Assembly: GCA_963693055.1 (NCBI GenBank)
Contig: OY843751.1
Span: 1,718,252-1,782,251, forward strand
DNA: 64,000 bases
Direction of reading: 5' to 3'
Origin: a bacterium
Lineage (GTDB): Bacteria; Zhuqueibacterota; Zhuqueibacteria; Residuimicrobiales; Krinioviventaceae
Shown here: positions 1,394 through 20,847 of the stretch, one piece after another
Numbering within the stretch: the stretch's first letter is position 1
Layout of the letters: each line of letters begins with the position of its first letter
Notes under the pieces: generated by a model
Database searches by the model: none
The model's input: the letters and a program-made list of their open reading frames with translations, nothing else
Told to the model about the DNA's origin: nothing
Translations under genes and position numbers: made by a program

Positions 1394-1759
1394 TTACATA
1401 ACTGAATTGATTGCGGATTCCAATCTATTCAAATTGATTGGTTTCATAAAAAAAGCCAGGGGATTTATACTTGTTGCCCGACTTTTTAGTTCTTCGTTTC
1501 CATAACCTGTCATAAATATTATAGCCGGATGGTAAAAAGAAAGGATTTTTTCCGCTGCTTCAATTCCATCCATTTTCCCAGCCAGTTGAATATCCATGAT
1601 TATGATATCCGGTTTTATATTCTGTGCGCTCTGCACAACATCTTCCCCCGTGCAGATTTTATTATAAACTTTATATCCTCTATCAATTAAATTTTGTTCT
1701 AAATTCAAAGCAATTAAAATTTCATCTTCTGCAATCATAATTGTCGTTTTGTGTTTCAT
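1394..1759 (-). CDS. Single-domain response regulator (CheY-like receiver)
   Basis: MKHKTTIMIAEDEILIALNL...PDIIIMDIQL...MTGYG receiver motifs; start taken at MKHK inside ORF 1394..1807; directly downstream of the large kinase. Confidence 0.8.
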   Translation of the reverse strand: MKHKTTIMIAEDEILIALNLEQNLIDRGYKVYNKICTGEDVVQSAQNIKPDIIIMDIQLAGKMDGIEAAEKILSFYHPAIIFMTGYGNEELKSRATSINPLAFFMKPINLNRLESAINSVM

Positions 1760-1761
1760 TA

Positions 1762-4700
1762 TTATACCCTTTCCGTATAGAATGTATCCTTGTATCGTAT
1801 CACACATTTTACTCCATTTTCAGATTCAAATTTTATATTGCCTTTTAATTGGTTTTCAACAAGAACAAGAATAATCCGTAATCCTAAATGGCTATCAATA
1901 TCAAGATCAAAGTTTTTTGGGAAACCGATTCCGTTATCCGAAACACATAGCTCAATTTCTTCTTCTTTTTTGGCTAGATGGATGTGAATAGTTCCTTCTC
2001 TTTTATCCGGGAATGCATGCTTTAGAGAATTTGATATTAACTCATTCAGTACCAGGCCACAAGGGATTGCGGTATCAATTAAAACAGATACACTTTCTAA
2101 ATCAAAGTCGACAGTAATTCTGTTGGAATTTAAATCAAAACTATCAAACAGAATGTTACCCAGATCAGTTATATAATCTTTCAAGTCTATCCGTGAAAGA
2201 TTAAAAGATTTATATAATTTTTCATGTACTAATGCCATTGAGTGTATGCGATTTTCCATTTCTTTAAATATTGACAATACTTCTTTATTGGTGGTGTTAT
2301 GGGCTTCCATGTTAAGTAGGGATATAATTACATGCATATTGTTTTTTGTACGATGATAGAGTTCTCTTAATAGCGTTTCCTTTTCCACCAGGGTCCGTTT
2401 AATTTGTTCTTCTGCTTGTTTTTGTTCAGTAATGTCAAGTATCACACCTGTTACTTTTAGTGGATGGCCTGATTCGTCTCTCTCTATATCTGCCTTTGAT
2501 AATATCGTTTTTCTGGTTTTTGTATTATATGTAAGAATATCAAATTCTAAATTATATTCTTTATCATTTTCAATGAGATCAACCAATGCCTGGTGCACTC
2601 TATCTCTTTCCGGAATGCAACCCTCAACTTTTTCTGTTGAAAAAGAATCAATATCCTTTTCAAAACCGTAAATTTTTTTCGCTTCGTCCGATCCCCAGAA
2701 TTGTGTTGTCTGTATATTATATTCCCAGCTACCCACATGCCCAATTGCCTGGGCTTTTTCATAACGCTTCTCGCTCCCAATTAGAGCATCTTCCATCCGT
2801 TTGAGGTCAGTAATATCAGTAAAAGTTACAATAACCTGAGTAATATTTTTCTCATTATCAAAAACTGGATCCGCATTAACCAGGAGCCATATATCATTAT
2901 CTCTGGCAGGACGATGCACACCTACTATCAAGTTTCTTACAGGTTGGAGAGTTGTAATGACCTGATTAACCGGATATTCTTCAAGTGACAATTTTGTTCC
3001 ATCTTTGAGGAAAATGTACCATGAAGGATCAATGGCTTTTTTCCTCAGTATCTGGTCTTCTGTTAATCCTAGTAATTCCTGTGCTTTTTGATTAGCTATC
3101 AATATTTGAGTATCCGCTCCATGTACAACCACCGCCGTTTGTATTTTCTGAATCAATTCCCGGAATTTTTCTTCACTTTTTTTAAGCTCATTTTCCGCTT
3201 GTAACCGTTCTTTTTCCTGTTGATCTCTTTGCAATCTTGCATTCAAAATGGGTGAGATGTAATTGGTAATACTCTCCAAAATTTCTTTGTCTTGTTCAGT
3301 ATAACCGTTTTCATTATTAGCAACTGAAATTAAACCAATGGATTTATGTGAATAGACTATCGGTACAGATAGAAAATGTTTGATTGTAACATGTCCAGTT
3401 GGTGTATTAAAGGGGCCATCGGAATACAGTGCTTTTTTTTCTCTGATCGATCTTCCCCATAGGGTGTTTCCCCATGTATGCTGTGGGAAAATAATAGACT
3501 TGTCCGAAACCTGGCATTCTTCCCAAATTTCCCGTGTCATGCTTGGAATAACCAGGTCACCATTTTTCTCAATAAATCCAAATACGCCGTAATGGCTTTT
3601 CATCACTTGAAGTACTATCTCTAAAACTTTACTATACATCTCTTCATCGGTAAGAGAAAGAAAAATATTTGAAATTTGGTTCTGGATTGATTTGCGTTGT
3701 TCCGATTCTATGAGTTTCTCCTCTACCTGTTTTTGATCGGTAATGTCAATTCGGACACCTGTTAATCGGAGCGGCTTTCCCTCTTTATCTTTTTCAACAG
3801 TACTACCAATTACACTATGCCATCGGTACGAGCCATCAGCGTGTTTCATTCTGGTTTCATAACGATAATCACTGGCAGCACCGCTCAATACATCTTTAAT
3901 TTTTGTTACTACACATTCTCTATCATCAGGATGAATCCTGGTTACCCACAAGTCCCGATCAGAAAACCCTGCTACAGGTTCATATCCAAGCATTGTATAA
4001 TATGTAGGTGTTGTGTACCAGATATCATCTTTTAAAAGCCAGTTCCAGATACCAATTTTTGTGACTTCTGTTGCAACGCGTAACCGTTCTTCGCTTTCTC
4101 TAAGCGCTTTCTCTGCCTGTTTACGTTTAGTGATATCCTCTATTGTTCCTACCGAACGAACAGGTTTGTCATTTTCATAAATGGTTTCGCATTTCTCATG
4201 TACAAACTTGATTCTTCCTTCCCCAAAATCAAGGCGGTGTTCAATAGAATATGGAATTCGGGTTTTGAGTGAGTTGGTAAAGGCCCATTTGACTGCTTTG
4301 CGGTCATCCGGGTGGATAGCATCAAGTATTATTTTATAGGTTATATCAAGTTTTTCAGGATCGATCTCAAAAATACGATAGGATTCATCTGACAATGTAA
4401 TGGTATTTGTTTCCAATTCCAGTTCCCAGCTTCCAATGTGGGCCATTCGCTGTGCTTCGTTGAGACGCATGGCTGTATATCTGAGTTTATCTTCTATCCG
4501 TTTCTGTTCAGTTACATTGTGTTCCAGTACAGTTACTCCGATTATTTCACCCGTTTCAGTTTTGATAGGATAATGATATACCTGGAAATAGTGTTGTGTA
4601 TTGGACTCTTTTTCTGAATATGATTTATCAACCCGTTGTTCCCCGGCCAAGACACGGTCCAGGTTTTTCCTGATTATTTCGCGATTTTTTTGCAATGGAA

Positions 4701-5100
4701 TATACTCTAACATGCTATTACCGATTTCGATTTTTGCATTATAATTGGTTTGCATATACATTGCATGTGAGTGGTTAAAATTGATGTATCGATATTGCCG
4801 GTCTACTGAATAGACTTTGGTATTGCTACAGTCAAGAATATTGTATAATGCGGTTATCTGGCAATTCAGTGTTTTATCAAATTGTTTATTTTCATTAGTC
4901 TCTTTTTTTAAATTACCCGAATACATGATAACTTTGTTTTTTAAAGTAAACCATAGCAATAATGCTATTCCTGACAAAACTAACAATATCAATATTATTT
5001 GAAAATTGTTTATAAGATTGGTATAGAAGACTATCCCCTCAGTATCTACTGTTTTAGACTTTATTTGATGAATCAGGTTGTACAGTGTTGAGATTTTCAT
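1762..5100 (-). CDS. Multi-sensor histidine kinase: N-terminal TM segment, several PAS/PAC domains, GAF-like region, HisKA_2-type kinase core
   Basis: 1112-aa ORF; repeated PAS-like blocks; HRTKNNMHVIISLL H-box typical of HisKA_2; DNGIGFP ATPase motif near C-terminus. Confidence 0.85.
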   Translation of the reverse strand: MKISTLYNLIHQIKSKTVDTEGIVFYTNLINNFQIILILLVLSGIALLLWFTLKNKVIMYSGNLKKETNENKQFDKTLNCQITALYNILDCSNTKVYSVDRQYRYINFNHSHAMYMQTNYNAKIEIGNSMLEYIPLQKNREIIRKNLDRVLAGEQRVDKSYSEKESNTQHYFQVYHYPIKTETGEIIGVTVLEHNVTEQKRIEDKLRYTAMRLNEAQRMAHIGSWELELETNTITLSDESYRIFEIDPEKLDITYKIILDAIHPDDRKAVKWAFTNSLKTRIPYSIEHRLDFGEGRIKFVHEKCETIYENDKPVRSVGTIEDITKRKQAEKALRESEERLRVATEVTKIGIWNWLLKDDIWYTTPTYYTMLGYEPVAGFSDRDLWVTRIHPDDRECVVTKIKDVLSGAASDYRYETRMKHADGSYRWHSVIGSTVEKDKEGKPLRLTGVRIDITDQKQVEEKLIESEQRKSIQNQISNIFLSLTDEEMYSKVLEIVLQVMKSHYGVFGFIEKNGDLVIPSMTREIWEECQVSDKSIIFPQHTWGNTLWGRSIREKKALYSDGPFNTPTGHVTIKHFLSVPIVYSHKSIGLISVANNENGYTEQDKEILESITNYISPILNARLQRDQQEKERLQAENELKKSEEKFRELIQKIQTAVVVHGADTQILIANQKAQELLGLTEDQILRKKAIDPSWYIFLKDGTKLSLEEYPVNQVITTLQPVRNLIVGVHRPARDNDIWLLVNADPVFDNEKNITQVIVTFTDITDLKRMEDALIGSEKRYEKAQAIGHVGSWEYNIQTTQFWGSDEAKKIYGFEKDIDSFSTEKVEGCIPERDRVHQALVDLIENDKEYNLEFDILTYNTKTRKTILSKADIERDESGHPLKVTGVILDITEQKQAEEQIKRTLVEKETLLRELYHRTKNNMHVIISLLNMEAHNTTNKEVLSIFKEMENRIHSMALVHEKLYKSFNLSRIDLKDYITDLGNILFDSFDLNSNRITVDFDLESVSVLIDTAIPCGLVLNELISNSLKHAFPDKREGTIHIHLAKKEEEIELCVSDNGIGFPKNFDLDIDSHLGLRIILVLVENQLKGNIKFESENGVKCVIRYKDTFYTERV

Positions 5101-7573: not shown

Positions 7574-7720
7574 ATTGGATAAATGATTTGGGGATATATT
7601 GATAAAGTGATTGATTTGATGGATTTTTTTGTTAAGTTGGAATATTGCTATATTCAGGTATGAGGACAAGAACCTCCAGATTATTACATCGGTTTTTATT
7701 GTGAAAATTGTGGATTAATT

Positions 7721-8056
7721 ATGAAATACAATCATATCGGCATTCCGACAAGTGAGCGTTTTGAAGATGAAATTGAAATTCCACATTTGAAAATTACAGT
7801 AAGCGATCACAAAAACAATCCATTCGGAATACAATGGATGCGTTACCGGGACGATGCTCCGTATCCGGATGTCGTTAAATCCATTCCCCATGTGGCATTT
7901 GAAGTCGATGATCTTGATATTGCTTTAAAAGATCAGGAAATTATTATATCACCCAATAGTCCCACACCCGGGGTTATTGTCGCTATGATTTTGGTAAATG
8001 GTGCACCTGTAGAGTTGATGCAAATAAACAGAGCTGTTTACAGGGATGAAATTTAA
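7721..8056 (+). CDS. Small hypothetical protein, possibly glyoxalase/VOC-like
   Basis: 111-aa ORF divergent from tnaA; weak resemblance to VOC-fold proteins (HIGI...PHVAFEVDDLD). Confidence 0.45.
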   Translation: MKYNHIGIPTSERFEDEIEIPHLKITVSDHKNNPFGIQWMRYRDDAPYPDVVKSIPHVAFEVDDLDIALKDQEIIISPNSPTPGVIVAMILVNGAPVELMQINRAVYRDEI

Positions 8057-8138
8057 TGATGGAAATAAACTTGTAACCGATGTGAATTATAATAGTGAGT
8101 AAACCCCGGATGAGATGTCCGGGATTTATATAAAACAA

Positions 8139-9593
8139 TTATTTCATTTCTGCCCGTAAAACATAGCCATATTCTGAAATGCGTTTTGCCGGGAATTGGA
8201 TAGTAAGACCGTCTTTTGTCTGTTGCCAATCTATTTTTTGCTCACTTCCAAGCATGGAAATATTTTTAATTTCAGGAGCATAATCCATTTGATCAGATAG
8301 GGATTTGATGGTTACTGTACCATCATCCGGGCAGACCAGGGCCATAATGTACAAGTTGTTGTCTTTTTGGGTAAACCAGAAATCCTGTTCCTGAAAATCT
8401 GACCTGAATCCATCACGTTTACGTTGAGTCGTACTTTTTATTTCAATTTTTGTGGGACCTTCATGTGTTACATGCTAGGAATGTCTTCCATAAATGGCTT
8501 CGCTGTTGATGGACATCCATTTGCCAATTTCGTGCAACTGGTCGATACTTTCCTGGGGTATGGAACCATCACCTTTGGGACCAATATTGAGCCAATAATT
8601 CCCGCCCTTTCTGGCAATAGCCATAATCCAGTAAATCAATTCTTTGGTGGACTTCCAATCCACATCATAACTTTTATATCCCCAGATATTGTTCAGGGTA
8701 CCGGGAGCTTCCCAGTACACGTCACCGCCTTCTCTGTTATCCGGGATTTTATTGTCACCGGTGACCCAATAATCGCCCCAATCATTACCTACTAGGTTGT
8801 TGACAAGGCAGTTGGGTTGAATATCGTAAATCAGTTTGTAAAATTCAAAACTCTGTTCTTGTGTCATATGATTCGCCATATCGTACCAAATCTCGATGAG
8901 GTTAGGAAGCGTATTTAACAGTTCTACCATTTGCGGTTTGGATTTGACCTCGAGATATTCCTCGAAAGAAACCGGAGAGGGGTCCCACATGTTTGCAGGC
9001 CAGTCTGCCTATTTGCTCGTATCGTCCGGATTTTCCTTTAAATAATTGAGCACACCCGCATTGCCGCCATCCATCTAATCGGTAGAATGTGAATAATAAA
9101 TACCAAAGCGCAGTCCTTGTTTTTCACATTCCTGTGAGAGGGCTTTGATAGGATCGATGTCAAAGGGGGTACTGTCAATAATATCGTAATCCGTTACTTT
9201 TGAATCGTACATTGCAAATCCATCATGGTGCTTGGGCATTGCTATTTCATATCGCATACCTGCGTCTTTTGCCAGTTTGACCCAGGCTTTTGCATCAAAT
9301 TTAACCGGATTGAACTGGCTGCATAATTGTTTGTACTCGTCCCTGGGTATTTACGCGTGGTAAAATATCCATTCACCCAATCCCGGGATCTTTTCTCCCT
9401 GCCAAATACTGGCAGGCATGGAATAGACACCCCAGTGACTAAACATGCTAAATTTATAATCATTAAATTGTTCCAGTGCCTGGCTTTTTGTATCGTGCAT
9501 TGCCTGCCAATCCTGCAATAAAGAATCATCGGCATAAACAAAAGTGCATACAAGAAAGAGTACAAGTATTGCAAATCTTTTAATCATCAACAT
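8139..9593 (-). pseudogene. GH29 alpha-L-fucosidase interrupted by four in-frame stop codons, no frameshift
   Basis: ORF fragments 9351..9593, 9075..9257, 8475..8990, 8139..8354 share one frame; read-through gives a continuous GH29-like protein (signal peptide, [36 protein letters not shown]). Stops at 9351-9353 TAA, 9075-9077 TAG, 9009-9011 TAG, 8475-8477 TAG. Confidence 0.8.
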
Positions 9594-9867
9594 GTCTCCT
9601 GTAGAAGCGTTTGGTGTTCAAACTTTAAGTTGTGCTATTAATTTTATAAATATTTTCATTCTAATATAAATATATAATTGAAAATATTAAAATTTATTTG
9701 TTTTTACAATAAAGTTTACTATTTTTATTAGTATAGGAACCATTATTTAATTGCAGGGGTTTAAAAATAACCAGTAATTGATGCTCAATCTATCAATGGG
9801 GTAAATCCTATATTTGATAATTGCCTTTTATAAAACACCAAATTTTTAATTTTCTAGGAGGGAGAAA

Positions 9868-12201
9868 ATGTTTAAAAGAATCAGCTTGTTAATCTTGATC
9901 ATTAGCTGCAGTCTTTTAGCGACAACCATTGATGACAAAGTATTGTTTTTGGATGGGGATGGAGATTATCTTCACCTACCGCAACCTATTGTCAATTCCA
10001 GTGCATTTACAATCGAGGGATATGCATATATGAATGGATCCGGAGGAGGTGTCTGGAGCCAGAATCCGTTTTTCCAACAGAGAAGCCCATATCTGGGGGA
10101 TGTTGATAGATCAACTTTGATTTTTGTAACAGAAAACCAACATGGTGAAATCGGTATGGGGGTGGCGTCCATTGGTTATTCTTATCAAGATTATCAGTAT
10201 AATCCCAGAGCCGATTACGGTGAGTGGCACCATTATGCATATGTAATTACCGGAGACAATGTTTGTATTTATCTAGATGGAGTAAAAATATTAGAAGATG
10301 TATGCAATCAACATGGTGATTATACATCAGAGATATATTTCACTGATATTGGTCGTCATACTATGGTTGATACTGATTATGGATTTTTTAATGGAATGCT
10401 AAATGAAATGCGAATTTGGAACAGGGAACTGAGCCAAAGTGAGATCCAGGAATTGAATTTGGGCCCGATTGATCTGGATACATTTGATTCATCTGAAAAA
10501 GGTCTTGTTGCTTATTGGCGTTTTGATGAAATTAAATATCTGGGCACGGAAGATGGTATTGTTCGGAGAATTGCGGATTTATCCGGAAATAACAATACAG
10601 GTACGCTTGTAGATGATGCTGTTATTATTGGTAATACCGAATCGATTAGTGCGAATAAAATCAAAGTAGAATCTGTAATATACAATGAAAATGATGTTGC
10701 GTTTGTTCCAATAAATGTTGATTTTTCTGAAATAACAGGATTTAACACAATCACTTTTAGTATTGAAAAGTCTGACAAGCTGGAACTACTTCAGATCATT
10801 CCTAATTCTCAACTTTTATCCATACCCAATACTGATATTACTTTTGAAAGTGTTGAAAATTCAACGGTGATAACCGTACAATGTAGTGAGCCCATTTTAC
10901 CAAAAGGTCTGCTTGTATGGTTGAAAATGTCTGTTCTTGATAATAACAGTGATTTTATCAATGTTAACCTTGATGCCGCAGAGGTTGGGGGACTTGGTGA
11001 AGCTCCATTGAAAATTTCAGGAGCTGTAGTAAAATCAACTGTAACCAAATCCGGAGACGTATATTACGATGGCATTGTTGATATGAATGATTGCAAAACA
11101 ATACTTGAACATGTATTGGGAATGTATGAAATTGATCCGGATTTGTTTAATGCTGCAGATGTTAATCAGGATGGTTCTATAACATCTCTGGATGCCAGTA
11201 TTATTCTACAATATATTAATGGACTTATTGATAACCTACCGGTGCCTTATACAACCAATATGTACCCCAGCTCAGGTTCTATCAATTTAGGAGATCCCAT
11301 CCCAGGAGCCGGTCAACTTGTTTCGATTCCAATTGTTATGAATCAAGGGGATAATATCTTTTCATTGTTTTGTGAAATAAGCTTTGATAGTGAGAATTAC
11401 ACCTTTAATGGATTTAATATGATTTACAATATCGTTCAATTATATTCACGTGTATCTGACGGTTGTTTAAAATGGAGTTTTGCACTGGCTGAACCTCTTT
11501 CAGGAAATGCTATTTTGGGTTATATGCAATTCACAAAAAATAATGTTGATGCCGGTAGTGCTATACTTGCAAGTGATATTTGCTTGAATGAAATCAATAG
11601 TACCGTCCCGGTAGAAATGTCCTCCTTTACGGCTTATAATGAGGATGGTTGTGTTTTACTCCAGTGGACAACAAAGACAGAAACCAATAATTTGGGATTC
11701 CATTTATATCGGTCAAGTACCTCAGAAGGTCCATGGACAAAAATTAATTCATCTATAATCCCAGGTAATTGCACTTCGTTAATAGAAAATAAATATACAT
11801 TTGTAGACACTGATATTGAAAATTTTTCAAAAGTTTATTATAAAATAGAGCAATTGGATACGGATGGCAGTACAGTTTCTTTTGGCCCCGTGGAACTGGA
11901 AGTTGGAGATGGTACTGTACCTAGTCGTTTTGCATTAAAACAAAATTATCCGAATCCATTTAATTCAAATACAATTATAGAATATAATGTACCCAGATCC
12001 GCTTATGTTAATGTTTCCATTTTTAATACAAGGGGACAATTGGTTAGGGAACTTTTAAATGCCAATCAATCAGCAGGGAATCATGATCTCGTGTGGCATG
12101 GAACTGATCAATTTGGCAATGTGGTCTCTTCCGGTGTTTATTTGGTAAGAATGACCGCGGGGAATTATAATAATACATTAAAAATGCTTTATGTGAAATA
12201 A
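9868..12201 (+). CDS. Secreted T9SS cargo protein with LamG/concanavalin-like domain, dockerin-like repeats and C-terminal T9SS sorting domain
   Basis: 777 aa; signal peptide; LNEMRIWNRELSQSEI (LamG-like); DVNQDGSITSLDASIILQYINGL (dockerin-like); C-terminal LKQNYPNPFNSNTIIEYNVP...GVYLVRM (T9SS type A sorting domain). Confidence 0.8.
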   Translation: MFKRISLLILIISCSLLATTIDDKVLFLDGDGDYLHLPQPIVNSSAFTIEGYAYMNGSGGGVWSQNPFFQQRSPYLGDVDRSTLIFVTENQHGEIGMGVASIGYSYQDYQYNPRADYGEWHHYAYVITGDNVCIYLDGVKILEDVCNQHGDYTSEIYFTDIGRHTMVDTDYGFFNGMLNEMRIWNRELSQSEIQELNLGPIDLDTFDSSEKGLVAYWRFDEIKYLGTEDGIVRRIADLSGNNNTGTLVDDAVIIGNTESISANKIKVESVIYNENDVAFVPINVDFSEITGFNTITFSIEKSDKLELLQIIPNSQLLSIPNTDITFESVENSTVITVQCSEPILPKGLLVWLKMSVLDNNSDFINVNLDAAEVGGLGEAPLKISGAVVKSTVTKSGDVYYDGIVDMNDCKTILEHVLGMYEIDPDLFNAADVNQDGSITSLDASIILQYINGLIDNLPVPYTTNMYPSSGSINLGDPIPGAGQLVSIPIVMNQGDNIFSLFCEISFDSENYTFNGFNMIYNIVQLYSRVSDGCLKWSFALAEPLSGNAILGYMQFTKNNVDAGSAILASDICLNEINSTVPVEMSSFTAYNEDGCVLLQWTTKTETNNLGFHLYRSSTSEGPWTKINSSIIPGNCTSLIENKYTFVDTDIENFSKVYYKIEQLDTDGSTVSFGPVELEVGDGTVPSRFALKQNYPNPFNSNTIIEYNVPRSAYVNVSIFNTRGQLVRELLNANQSAGNHDLVWHGTDQFGNVVSSGVYLVRMTAGNYNNTLKMLYVK

Positions 12202-12211
12202 GGAAAATTTT

Positions 12212-12269
12212 CCGGTATTTACAAGATGCTTTTCAAAAAAAGCAGATACTATAAATACCGGATTTTTTT
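12212..12269 (+). terminator. Terminator-like hairpin after the T9SS cargo gene
   Basis: 10-bp inverted arms ccggtattta / taaataccgg around a structured loop, followed by a run of seven T. Confidence 0.5.
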
Positions 12270-12415
12270 ACAAATTTATTAAGGGCTAAACTACGACATA
12301 TCGGCGACAGCGTAAGAGGTAGTTGATTTAAATTTTTGACCTGTATTATTGAATCAGGAATTGTAAATTCAGGGGTTCATTTCCGAGCGATAGTTTATAA
12401 GCAATTTAATATAAA

Positions 12416-13135
12416 TTATTCATTCAACAAATTTGCAATTTCTTTACTTATTTCATCTGCCAGTTTGTTATAGCCATCCTGATTATAGTGTACATTACCC
12501 TTGGATGCACTATACTTTTCAAGCTCTGGTTCAATCAGGTTATACAAGTCAATAACCGGGATATTGTTTTCTTGCATGATCTTTTTTGCAATATTGTTTC
12601 TATCAATTACAACCTGGTTTTTTTTTGGATCTAACTTTAGATCAGGTTCATCTGACGGGAAGGGAGTTGTCTAGGAATAGACCAGTTTGCAATTTCTGGA
12701 TTTTTCAGATTTAAGAAATTTAACAAATTTTCTCAAGCTCTTTTCATATTGGCTATTGTCAAGATGCTAGCCATGAAGTCCATTATTAAAATGTATTAAT
12801 ACATGGTTTTAATTTGCCATAGCAATTTTTGATTCAATCATCAATGATGGATCTGCAATGGATCTGGATGTGGCGTATCGATCGCAATTGCCTTGCGGCA
12901 GCTTTTCTGAAACTGCTTTATAGTATCCTCTTGAAATAGAATCCCCAATAAACAATACACGGGGCTTTTCTGTATCGGGTTCATTTGCCCACCAGAAATC
13001 GCACCACTCGATTTTTTCACGAATTACTTGTGCTTTCGTGCAACCTGCTATAATAAAACCCGTTAATAATATAAAATAAAGTGTTTTTGAAGAAATTATC
13101 CTGTTCCATTGAAACCCGGGCATCGCGTTTTTCAT
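12416..13135 (-). pseudogene. SGNH/GDSL hydrolase (lipoprotein-type signal) interrupted by three in-frame stop codons, no frameshift
   Basis: N-terminal fragment 12809..13135 has lipobox and RVLFIGDSISRGY block I; reading on in the same frame through TAA (12809-12811), TAG (12767-12769) and TAG (12671-12673) gives ...HVLIHFNNGLHG*HLDN...KLVYS*TTPFP...NVHYNQDGYNKLADEI..., ending at 12416. Confidence 0.75.
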
Positions 13136-13529
13136 TACTTATTCCTTTTAATTGTTAATTTTTCAGTATGTTTAAAAAGGAATAAAATAATTTGATAAAA
13201 ATCAATATAATATTTCATTGAAAAATACAGATCCATTTCAATCAAAATATATATCATTGCATTTTTCCGGTATTTGTGATATACTTACTAGTCACATGAG
13301 ATAATATATGTAAAGGGGGGGTAAATTAATCAAAGACAATATTACTGCATTCTCTGATAAGGTAGTGTAAGGATGGAAATTTATAAATATTAATGCGGGA
13401 AAATTATGATCTGTCTATAAATATTCCGGTTTATACGTTTGAGGCATGAAATATTTTTTAATCAATATCAATGTTTTTAAAAAGATTTAAGAGTAAGTTG
13501 GAATAAAAGATAATAATTTAAGGTACAAT

Positions 13530-14033
13530 GTGACAAAAATTTTTATGTATATATGGATTTTTCTCCTATTAGTAAATTTTATACTTTTATTTGTAAAGAT
13601 GTTTTCTATTTCTGAAACCCATGTTAAATTTGGAATAGGAATTAAATTTCTTTTTTTACATTTTTTTGTTATCATGTCTTTAGGATATTATTTTTCTGTC
13701 ATTGAACCATTTTTTTTGAATGGAAAAGAACCTAATCTGAACGCTACTATTCTGTTGCTATTTTCCATTTTGGGAGTTTATGTTGGATTTAGCTTTCGAT
13801 TTCAATGTAAGGGAAAGTATTATATATGGTTCAACGGCCTATATATTCGAAAAGTATCTTCCGATACCATCAAATATATTATTTTCTATGTGAAAAAGGG
13901 ACAAACACAAAAAATTAAGTTTGTTAGAGATGGAAAGAATATTACTTTTCGATTTGGGAATTATTTTGAATATGTTATTTATAAATTTGCACATGAAAAC
14001 AAAATTCATATAAAAAGAAAAAAATATAGTTGA
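13530..14033 (+). CDS. Orphan hypothetical membrane protein in a very AT-rich island
   Basis: 167-aa ORF with two N-terminal hydrophobic helices and a Lys-rich C-terminal part; strongly AT-rich compared with flanks; followed by its own terminator; start uncertain (GTG 13530 or ATG about 13545). Confidence 0.4.
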   Translation: MTKIFMYIWIFLLLVNFILLFVKMFSISETHVKFGIGIKFLFLHFFVIMSLGYYFSVIEPFFLNGKEPNLNATILLLFSILGVYVGFSFRFQCKGKYYIWFNGLYIRKVSSDTIKYIIFYVKKGQTQKIKFVRDGKNITFRFGNYFEYVIYKFAHENKIHIKRKKYS

Positions 14034-14045
14034 ATTTTAGTATGT

Positions 14046-14073
14046 ATAGATGGCGATTTGTCCATCTTTTTTA
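14046..14073 (+). terminator. Rho-independent terminator after the AT-rich orphan ORF
   Basis: agatgg-cgatttgt-ccatct hairpin followed by a T-run. Confidence 0.55.
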
Positions 14074-14172
14074 GGAAGTGTAAAGATTTTTGTGTAAATC
14101 ATGAACAAGGGTTCAATAACCCGTAGGGTTATTGAATTTCGATCGCTGATTGATTTGCACACACTTTTCCAA

Positions 14173-15505
14173 GGGACTGTAAATTCGCTTGTGTTTTAAA
14201 AACAAATATTACATTTTATTAAATACAGGAGAATTTACCAATGAAACTTACACCTGAAATTATTAAACAACTTGAAAAAGATTTTGAAAATTGCAAGACA
14301 GCAGACGATCTGCTGGGCAAAAATGGTCTGGTCAAGAATTTGATTAAGGGCATATCAGACCAAATTATGGAAGCTGAAATGACCCAGCACTTGGGCTATG
14401 AGAGACATTCTTCAGAAGGTGATAACAGTGGCAATAGTAGAAACGGTCACAGCAGCAAAACAGTGAAGACAGATTTTGGTGAAATTGACATCAAAATCCC
14501 CCGTGATCGGAATGGAGAATTTGACCCGGTACTTGTCAAAAAGCACCAGCGTGATCTGGGCAAAATAGATGAAATTATCGTTGCCTTATATGCCAAAGGT
14601 CTGAGTACAAGAGACATCAAAGACCACCTGGAAACACTTTACGGCCTGGACGCTTCCCCAACATTTATTTCCAATGTTACCGAACGGGTACGCGAGCTTG
14701 TCGTTGAATGGCAGTCAAGACCGTTGGATAGCGTTTATCCTATTGTTTATTTGGATGCTATCCACTATAAGATACGTGACGAAGGGCGTATTATAAACAA
14801 GGCCGCCTATACTGTACTGGGAATCAATGGTGAAGGCTTTAAGGATTTACTTGGTATTTGGATCGACCAGTCCGAGGGCGCCAATTTCTGGCTGTCTGTT
14901 TTAACCGATATACGAAACCGTGGGGTTGAAGATATTCTGATTGCATGCGTAGATGGGCTGAAAGGCTTTCCGGATGCTATTGCCAGCATTTTTCCCGATA
15001 CTGAAGTCCAGCTTTGTATCATCCATCAAATCCGTAACTCGCTTCGTTATGTTGCATCAAAACATCAAAAAGAATTTATCAAAGATCTGAAGCTGGTTTA
15101 TCAAAGCACAACTAAAGAAAACGCTGAACTGCAACTGGATCGCCTTGAACAAAAATGGGGGGTCAAATATCCCATTGTTATCAATTCCTGGAGAAAAAAC
15201 TGGGACAACCTGTCCAACTATTTTAAATATCCCGAAGAAATTCGGCGAATGATCTATACCACAAATAGTGTAGAGGCTCTGCACCGACAGCTTCGCAAAG
15301 TCACTAAAACCAAATCTCTGTTCCCCCACGATGATGCGTTGAAAAAAATGCTGTTTCTGGCCTACAGGGATATTGCTAAAAAATGGTCGCAGCCCATCAG
15401 AAACTGGGCCTTTGTTGTTTCTCAATTTTCTATTATATTTAAAGACAGGATGAAAATCCAAATATAGCACTACTATTCATTTACACAAAAAAGTTTACAG
15501 TCTCC
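14173..15505 (+). mobile_element. IS256-family insertion sequence, about 1.33 kb, with imperfect terminal inverted repeats
   Basis: Left end gggactgtaaattcgcttgtgt (14173-14194) matches the reverse complement of the right end (15483-15505, ggagactgtaaacttttttgtgt); single transposase ORF inside. Boundaries are approximate to a few bp; no clear target-site duplication seen. Confidence 0.7.
14241..15467 (+). CDS. IS256-family (mutator-type) transposase
   Basis: 408 aa with the typical IS256 transposase layout (YLDAIHYKIR, CVDGLKGFPDAI, CIIHQIRNS); RBS aggag upstream. Confidence 0.9.
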   Translation: MKLTPEIIKQLEKDFENCKTADDLLGKNGLVKNLIKGISDQIMEAEMTQHLGYERHSSEGDNSGNSRNGHSSKTVKTDFGEIDIKIPRDRNGEFDPVLVKKHQRDLGKIDEIIVALYAKGLSTRDIKDHLETLYGLDASPTFISNVTERVRELVVEWQSRPLDSVYPIVYLDAIHYKIRDEGRIINKAAYTVLGINGEGFKDLLGIWIDQSEGANFWLSVLTDIRNRGVEDILIACVDGLKGFPDAIASIFPDTEVQLCIIHQIRNSLRYVASKHQKEFIKDLKLVYQSTTKENAELQLDRLEQKWGVKYPIVINSWRKNWDNLSNYFKYPEEIRRMIYTTNSVEALHRQLRKVTKTKSLFPHDDALKKMLFLAYRDIAKKWSQPIRNWAFVVSQFSIIFKDRMKIQI

Positions 15506-15633
15506 TTTTTTATTTTTCATTAATTAGTTATATTTGATTTTTGTTTGATTATAGATTTATTCTCATTCTCAATCCTGAATAATATTGTATTTTCAGGCGT
15601 TTGTGATATACTATTTAAAAGTATTGAGGAAAG

Positions 15634-20130: not shown

Positions 20131-20847
20131 CTAGTTTTTACCGCCTTTGCCTCTTGAAGGTGTTGAATCATCAGAGCGTCCAAAACCTACTGTGGTATTT
20201 GTTGCTCCACGTCCCAGACAATCTTCCGGGCGGACCCAATCAGAGTCCTGACCATTGGGGATACCGTCACTGTCATCATCCGGTGCATTGTCGTTGATTC
20301 CATCACCGTCTTCGTCAACAAATGCATGCATGCTGCGACCTTTGCCATTGCCAAAACCGCTTTTGCCGCCAGCTGCTACGTAATCAGCATCCTGACCATT
20401 TGGGATTCCATCACCATCAGCATCAGGTGCATTGTCATTATATCCGTCACCATCTTCGTCTACAAAACTATTTGCGCCTTGTTTCTGACCATTTCCTGCG
20501 GCACTACCCTGACCAGCTTGTGCTACATAATCTTCATCCATGCCATTGGGGATTCCATCGCCATCTGCATCCGGTGCATTGTCGTTATAGCCGTCACCAT
20601 CTTCGTCTACAAAGCCTTCACCGGAAATACCCTGACCATAGCCGGAACCTGTACGGACATAATCTTCATCCATACCATTGGGAATTCCATCGCCATCAGC
20701 GTCCGGGGCATTGTCATTGTAGCCATCACCATTGAGGTCCACAAATTTTACACCATGTTCAGCGGTTTGTGAAAATACAGAGGTACTTGCAAATGCTGTC
20801 ATTGCCAAAGCAAGAAGCAGAACGGATAATGTTTTTGATGTTTTCAT
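20131..20847 (-). CDS. Secreted protein built of four tandem thrombospondin type 3-like calcium-binding repeats
   Basis: Signal peptide, then four copies of FVDEDGDGYNDNAPDADGDGIPNG(M/Q)D(E/A)DYV separated by Gly-rich linkers. Confidence 0.7.
   Translation of the reverse strand: MKTSKTLSVLLLALAMTAFASTSVFSQTAEHGVKFVDLNGDGYNDNAPDADGDGIPNGMDEDYVRTGSGYGQGISGEGFVDEDGDGYNDNAPDADGDGIPNGMDEDYVAQAGQGSAAGNGQKQGANSFVDEDGDGYNDNAPDADGDGIPNGQDADYVAAGGKSGFGNGKGRSMHAFVDEDGDGINDNAPDDDSDGIPNGQDSDWVRPEDCLGRGATNTTVGFGRSDDSTPSRGKGGKN
20255..20770. repeat. Four tandem DNA repeats of about 130-150 bp encoding the calcium-binding repeat units
   Basis: Near-identical blocks (ggattccatcrccatcwgcatcmggtgcattgtcrttrtakccgtcaccatcttcgtctacaaa) recur at roughly 20260, 20400, 20550 and 20680. 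Confidence 0.7.

Follow-up and report, generated by a model that had tools for sequence, protein, structure and literature searches.

Two neighbouring genes for exported enzymes, an alpha-L-fucosidase of family GH29 and an SGNH/GDSL esterase lipoprotein, are interrupted by seven in-frame stops and by no indel in the 64-kb stretch of contig OY843751.1 analysed here (hereafter the window). With a probability of roughly 80%, judged from sequence comparison, the two exported enzymes were dispensable and their genes became pseudogenes fairly recently, in the ordinary way, through mixed point mutations. In this scenario, selection on both genes would be relaxed and they would be decaying in a free-living bacterium that degrades polysaccharides and has a large genome (~6.5 Mb), with nothing special in the mutational process. 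The two pseudogenes, their stops and the gene between them are as follows.

8139..9593, minus strand: GH29 alpha-L-fucosidase pseudogene of 484 codons, with a signal peptide and no indels; four in-frame stops and about 10 damaging missense changes
9351..9353, minus strand: GH29 stop 1, TAA at codon 81; ancestral CAA (Gln), coding-strand C>T
9075..9077, minus strand: GH29 stop 2, TAG at codon 173; ancestral TGG, with Trp in 100% of 117 homologues
9009..9011, minus strand: GH29 stop 3, TAG at codon 195; ancestral TGG (Trp)
8475..8477, minus strand: GH29 stop 4, TAG at codon 373; ancestral TGG, plus-strand CCAGG>CTAGG
9868..12201, plus strand: intact gene between the two pseudogenes for a 777-residue LamG/dockerin protein sorted by the type IX secretion system (T9SS); dN/dS (ratio of non-synonymous to synonymous divergence) 0.13 against the relative described below
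12416..13135, minus strand: SGNH/GDSL esterase lipoprotein pseudogene of 239 codons, with three in-frame stops within 141 bp, no indels and no clear damaging missense change
12809..12811, minus strand: SGNH stop 1, TAA at codon 109, from ancestral TAT by a T>A transversion; the Tyr is 100% conserved
12767..12769, minus strand: SGNH stop 2, TAG at codon 123; ancestral TGG (Trp)
12671..12673, minus strand: SGNH stop 3, TAG at codon 155; ancestral TTG (Leu), T>A, leaving plus-strand CTAGG from CAAGG

Both enzymes remain recognisable along their whole length. Minus-strand positions 9593 to 8139, translated in a single frame, match Pfam families PF01120 (E = 7.6e-68) and PF16757 (E = 1.7e-12) end to end, so that the catalytic and C-terminal domains are both covered at full length despite the four stops, and the frame from 13135 to 12416 is matched end to end by PF13472 (GDSL_2). 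The closest available genome is the metagenome-assembled genome CAXXMD01, at ~86% DNA identity, which carries both intact orthologues, P0001 for the fucosidase and P0121 for the esterase, on a 390-kb contig syntenic with positions 1–22 kb of the window at 84.5–91% DNA identity. These two proteins are the best homologues of the interrupted frames, and their genes lie in matching order around the LamG gene. Both protein alignments are gap-free, at 91.5% amino acid identity for the fucosidase and 92.5% for the esterase, and blastn against the relative places no indel within either gene; the sole nearby gap, at 8140, lies within the terminal stop codon or beyond it. Export signals can be read directly in both frames, a signal peptide in the fucosidase and a lipobox-like ..IIAGC in the esterase. 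An original prediction made from the window's letters alone, of seven premature stops and zero indels in two secreted enzyme genes, is thus confirmed by translation, Pfam coverage and orthologue alignment. The comparison shows that both genes still worked in the last ancestor shared with this relative, the nearest one sequenced, in which the syntenic orthologues stay intact.

The relative also reveals how the stops arose. Its codons at the seven positions are CAA, TGG, TGG and TGG in the fucosidase and TAT, TGG and TTG in the esterase, and the residues that they encode are conserved in 62–100% of 61–117 further homologues. Each stop is a single-base change on the window lineage, five being G:C>A:T transitions and two T>A transversions. 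The outgroups used for polarising share at most 76% amino acid identity, so polarisation was confined to amino acid changes. The original prediction had expected at least two TGG>TAG changes, and four are found; its description of the damage as nonsense-only does not hold for the fucosidase. The fucosidase carries about 10 missense changes that are derived on the window lineage and fall where at least 90% of 117 homologues agree, and the relative carries none of this kind. The damage at such positions comprises G49S, I52S, G62S, S266N, R267L, T303I, S328R, L334W and T370R; further changes are V116E, at a position occupied by Ile in 94% of homologues, and W421C. A relative-rate test with the paralogue P0002 as outgroup counts 20 residues unique to the window and 4 unique to the relative (P = 0.0015). 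The fucosidase protein has evolved faster on the window lineage, which is the expected mark of a period of unconstrained evolution, in the manner of classic relaxed selection. The substitutions show that constraint was lost long enough ago for about 40 unfiltered point substitutions to accumulate, including the ~10 near-invariant hits and the four stops. Very recent inactivation, one of the explanations offered in the original prediction, comes close to the best explanation.

Synonymous divergence is not raised in either gene (dS 0.51 for GH29 and 0.14 for SGNH), and 70% of the differences between window and relative fall at third codon positions. The pairwise dN/dS values of 0.077 and 0.206 are similar to those of neighbouring genes; therefore most of the divergence predates inactivation. 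Within the fucosidase, codons 266–267 (8793–8797) have changed from AGT CGC to AAC CTA, that is, by a clustered multi-nucleotide change of four bases in five nucleotides that alters two near-invariant residues. Two adjacent changes are also seen in several other damaged codons. The paralogue P0002 (76% identity) lies on another CAXXMD01 contig within a large glycoside-hydrolase cluster, and no intact GH29 counterpart from the window's own 6.5-Mb contig appears among the top 120 GH29 hits.

The esterase has a shorter record of damage. Polarised with homologues, its conserved positions are damaged by the three stops only, and therefore its release from selection appears to be more recent than that of the fucosidase. 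For this gene alone, unique changes number 4–7 in the window against 0–2 in the relative, three of the window's being the stops. Starting 150 bp upstream of its start codon, the window has a 2.3-kb insertion that the relative lacks, at a site represented there by a 170-bp divergent intergenic region.

13286..15589, no strand assigned: 2.3-kb insertion
13530-14033: AT-rich open reading frame (ORF) of 167 amino acids without a Pfam match, inside the insertion
14079-14099 and 15479-15499: 21-nt inverted repeats of an IS256/Mutator-family insertion sequence (IS) with its transposase at 14241-15467, inside the insertion

This IS-bearing insertion may have silenced or disrupted expression of the esterase gene, and it may have been involved in the probable later release of this gene from selection. 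An imperfect 23-bp direct repeat (13263-13285 and 15590-15612) borders the insertion and is far longer than a typical IS256 target duplication. The silent sites of the esterase are unusually close to those of the relative, with a dS of 0.14 and 94.8% nucleotide identity against dS values of 0.33–0.98 in most genes of the block, among which only hyp238 (dS 0.18) resembles it; this low dS hints at recent recombination between lineages.

Such a combination of lesions is close to what bacteria display in relaxed-selection pseudogenes of dispensable catabolic genes (for example, PMC6054270): full-length homology, an intact syntenic orthologue, lineage-specific radical substitutions, stops one base away from sense codons, and an IS insertion and gene remnants nearby. 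Unlike the indel-rich published sets, the two genes have no small indels, and their share of stops is somewhat high. The Burkholderia set of PMC6054270 was in fact selected for at least three indels per pseudogene.

We evaluated these two departures against chance by enumerating, as the null, all single-base mutations of the relative's sequences, taken as ancestral, under four mutation spectra. Neutral mutation yields stops at 5.3–8.2% and missense changes at conserved positions at 25–27%, the sizeable stop share being due in part to the 21 Trp codons of the fucosidase (21 Trp in 482 residues). The expected stop share among stops plus conserved-site missense changes is 17–25%, and the implied number of neutral substitutions in the two genes is ~40–55. 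For indels, a local ratio was used because PMC6054270 gives indel counts for pseudogenes and no ratio per substitution: 1.65 kb of aligned intergenic DNA from the same block holds 24 indels to 253 substitutions (0.095).

Several outcomes of this comparison weigh against ordinary decay. Seven stops to ten conserved-site missense changes is an excess, with P(at least 7 of 17) running from 0.015 under a uniform spectrum to 0.10 under a strongly AT-biased one, and the esterase taken alone, with three stops and no conserved-site missense change, gives a nominal P of ~0.003–0.02. The intergenic ratio predicts 4–5 indels, for which the probability of observing zero is ~0.007–0.02. The new stops are TAG or TAA only, with no TGA (P 0.08–0.16, not significant), and the four Trp codons have gone to TAG rather than TGA by 4:0 (P ~0.06–0.13, not significant). 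Finally, the stops are read from an assembly consensus that is compared with a relative of ~86% identity only.

Discounting one ascertaining stop per gene brings the P value for the stop excess to 0.09–0.36, and the probability of zero indels spans ~0.007–0.4 depending on the assumed indel rate. Homopolymers of at least 6 nt occur at 6.4 per kb in the intergenic DNA and at 0.7 per kb in GH29, ~9-fold fewer, and therefore the ratio of 0.095 probably overstates the indel rate; the true expectation is probably nearer 1. After allowing for the post-hoc choice of pattern, the residual anomaly of stop excess and zero indels is weak. The P values are borderline, and the earlier statement that the pattern is unlikely under ordinary neutral decay was overstated. 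Under ordinary pseudogenisation, the stops would be mostly TGG>TAG and CAA>TAA because the fucosidase is Trp-rich and because, in an AT-rich genome, G:C>A:T changes are the most frequent. The lack of indels would chiefly reflect their low expected number in ~2.2 kb of coding DNA poor in homopolymers during a short neutral period.

Base-call or consensus errors in genes that are really intact would account for stops inside genes that look intact otherwise and show no frameshifts, as in the internal-stop pseudogenes that are often assembly artefacts (PMC11017572, Cooley & Wright 2024), and the esterase is indeed faultless apart from its three stops. At least 17 errors would be needed in two separate genes, however, with none in the middle gene or in the ~50 other long ORFs, and TnaA, whose gene lies 0.7 kb away from that of the fucosidase, has 99.3% protein identity to its counterpart in the relative. 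In contrast to pseudogenes created by assembly error, the lesions lie in two genes only, the fucosidase bears the marks of relaxed constraint and the rest of the window is clean. The source is a single 6.5-Mb contig, so a long-read assembly, and the sequence contains no N characters. Frameshift correction during assembly might still account for the zero indels. Errors typical of long-read assemblies are indels, not substitutions. Assembly error is unlikely, since the lesions are gene-specific. Sequence from the same species was sought in three ways: exact look-up of the window's LamG and TnaA proteins gave none, a scan of GTDB representative genomes gave only the relative of ~86% identity and a scan of JGI metagenomes with the LamG protein gave only hits of 30% identity.

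A variant of ordinary decay adds weak selection for earlier truncation, in which upstream stops shorten a costly or jamming exported polypeptide. Both products are exported and there is a mild excess of stops, but the excess is statistically weak, and upstream frameshifts, which should be equally favoured, are nowhere seen; we see only a slim chance that such selection operated. Taken more broadly, we give little credence to the idea that decay here truly favours nonsense and avoids indels, through selected upstream stops or through TAG/TAA read-through in the esterase, and that the esterase pattern is biology and not chance.

The original prediction raised a transition-biased or deaminase-type process behind a localized mutational signature. 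Under the corresponding rival explanation, spontaneous deamination of Dcm-type 5-methylcytosine at CCWGG, or a DNA deaminase toxin or an APOBEC-like enzyme acting on this 5-kb stretch, would have made the stops. Sites of 5-methylcytosine deamination at Dcm (CCWGG) targets are the classic amber hot spots of Escherichia coli lacI, and the stop at 8475–8477 is exactly of this kind, a CCAGG>CTAGG change at the inner cytosine that makes TAG. Five of the seven stops are C:G>T:A changes, and the four Trp codons all became TAG and not TGA, which corresponds to a 5'-CC context on the complementary strand. Six of the seven stops, however, lie outside CCWGG, and two, one of them at the second CTAGG site, are T>A transversions. 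Both CTAGG sites that had been noticed, at 8475 and 12671, are present; descent from CCAGG holds for the first alone, as 12671-12675 derives from CAAGG by a plus-strand A>T change (coding TTG>TAG). The 18 affected codons together contain 24 base changes, of which only 9 are C:G>T:A, with both strands struck, and the sequence contexts of the C>T changes (CC and CpA) follow necessarily from the TGG and GGN codons.

Regional tests lead to the same result. Comparing window with relative, G>A and A>G differences number 32 and 23 in the two genes against 208 and 171 in nine flanking intact genes, and C>T and T>C differences 26 and 17 against 185 and 187. In their base-change matrix, the two genes agree with their flanks and show no G>A or C>T asymmetry beyond them. 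Among the relative's 33 CCWGG sites over ~15 kb of synteny, 18 are kept, 14 have changed otherwise and 1, the 8475–8477 stop, has changed by inner C>T. A count confined to the window, where the original prediction had called for one across the genome, finds CCWGG barely depleted (109 observed, ~132 expected) and no enrichment of CTAGG plus CCTAG (12 observed, 14 expected), and no dcm, vsr or deaminase gene occurs among the ~55 ORFs of the window. APOBEC3G in retroviruses, interbacterial toxins of the DddA type and fungal repeat-induced point mutation leave TGG>TAG and CAA>TAA as their hallmark, in a spectrum that is near-exclusively C>T, dense and strand-coordinated, and deaminase hypermutation also strikes synonymous sites and neighbouring DNA. 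The stops resemble these systems by analogy only; here the spectrum is mixed and on both strands, synonymous divergence is normal and the 2.3-kb middle gene is untouched by stops. The Dcm or deaminase explanation suits one site of the seven, fails every regional test and appears largely refuted; we regard it as very unlikely.

Least credible of all is that read-through, suppression or fragment reassembly keeps the genes, or at least the esterase, working and thereby explains the missing frameshifts: the zero frameshifts, the use of TAG and TAA but never TGA and the otherwise undamaged esterase would fit, but TAA and TAG end 41 of 51 ordinary ORFs of the window in normal terminator use (TAA 32, TAG 9, TGA 10), the ancestral residues W, Q, Y and L follow no single decoding rule, the fucosidase carries ~10 near-invariant substitutions and evolves at an accelerated rate, there is no tRNA gene in the window and only 2 of ~53 genes are affected.

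The biological weight of ordinary pseudogenisation here is small, in that a lineage of an uncultured polysaccharide degrader, KSB1-like to judge only by the named GH29 and TnaA hits of lower rank, has probably lost one fucosidase/esterase pair, beside further gene loss and an IS insertion in the same region. Its value is methodological: a cluster of stops viewed in one sequence alone mimics a special mutational signature, and comparison with the orthologues uncovers missense changes that would otherwise go unnoticed, identifies the actual ancestral codons and reveals a CTAGG without a CCAGG origin. If the stop excess and the lack of indels proved to be genome-wide, they would bear on how pseudogenes of exported proteins are silenced.

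Elsewhere in the window, a six-frame scan found no stop-interrupted gene besides the fucosidase and the esterase. The original prediction had called for such a census of in-frame stops genome-wide; carried out within the window, it leaves these two genes alone interrupted. No break is seen in any of the ~50 other long ORFs of the 64 kb, among which are the middle gene and three other glycoside hydrolases. Within the middle gene, which is intact, blastn against the orthologue sets two single-nucleotide gaps, a deletion and an insertion, 11 nt apart at 11260-11271; these are due either to an artefact of alignment or to a frameshift that is compensated within about four codons. The rest of the window contains a dcw cell-division cluster, genes of the tricarboxylic acid cycle and intact GH28 and GH35/42-like genes.

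Three places in the syntenic block show signs suggestive of local gene turnover and loss: a gene remnant at 1144-1302, a swapped gene downstream of the fucosidase and the IS insertion. The remnant (plus strand) consists of 53 C-terminal codons with 70% amino acid identity to the relative's 779-residue secreted protein of the Cthe_2159 family, and a response regulator and a 1112-residue PAS/GAF histidine kinase at 1394-5100 take the place of the remainder of this gene and of the T9SS protein next to it. Downstream of the fucosidase, at 7640-8100, the window has a 111-residue ORF (7721-8056) without a Pfam hit where the relative has an unrelated 187-residue gene, and the DNA of the two is not alignable. 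Last, a 238-residue ORF at 20131-20847 (minus strand), also without a Pfam hit, is unusually conserved, with 96% amino acid identity to the relative, and off-diagonal blastn matches to the relative reveal internal repeats ~130–150 bp apart.

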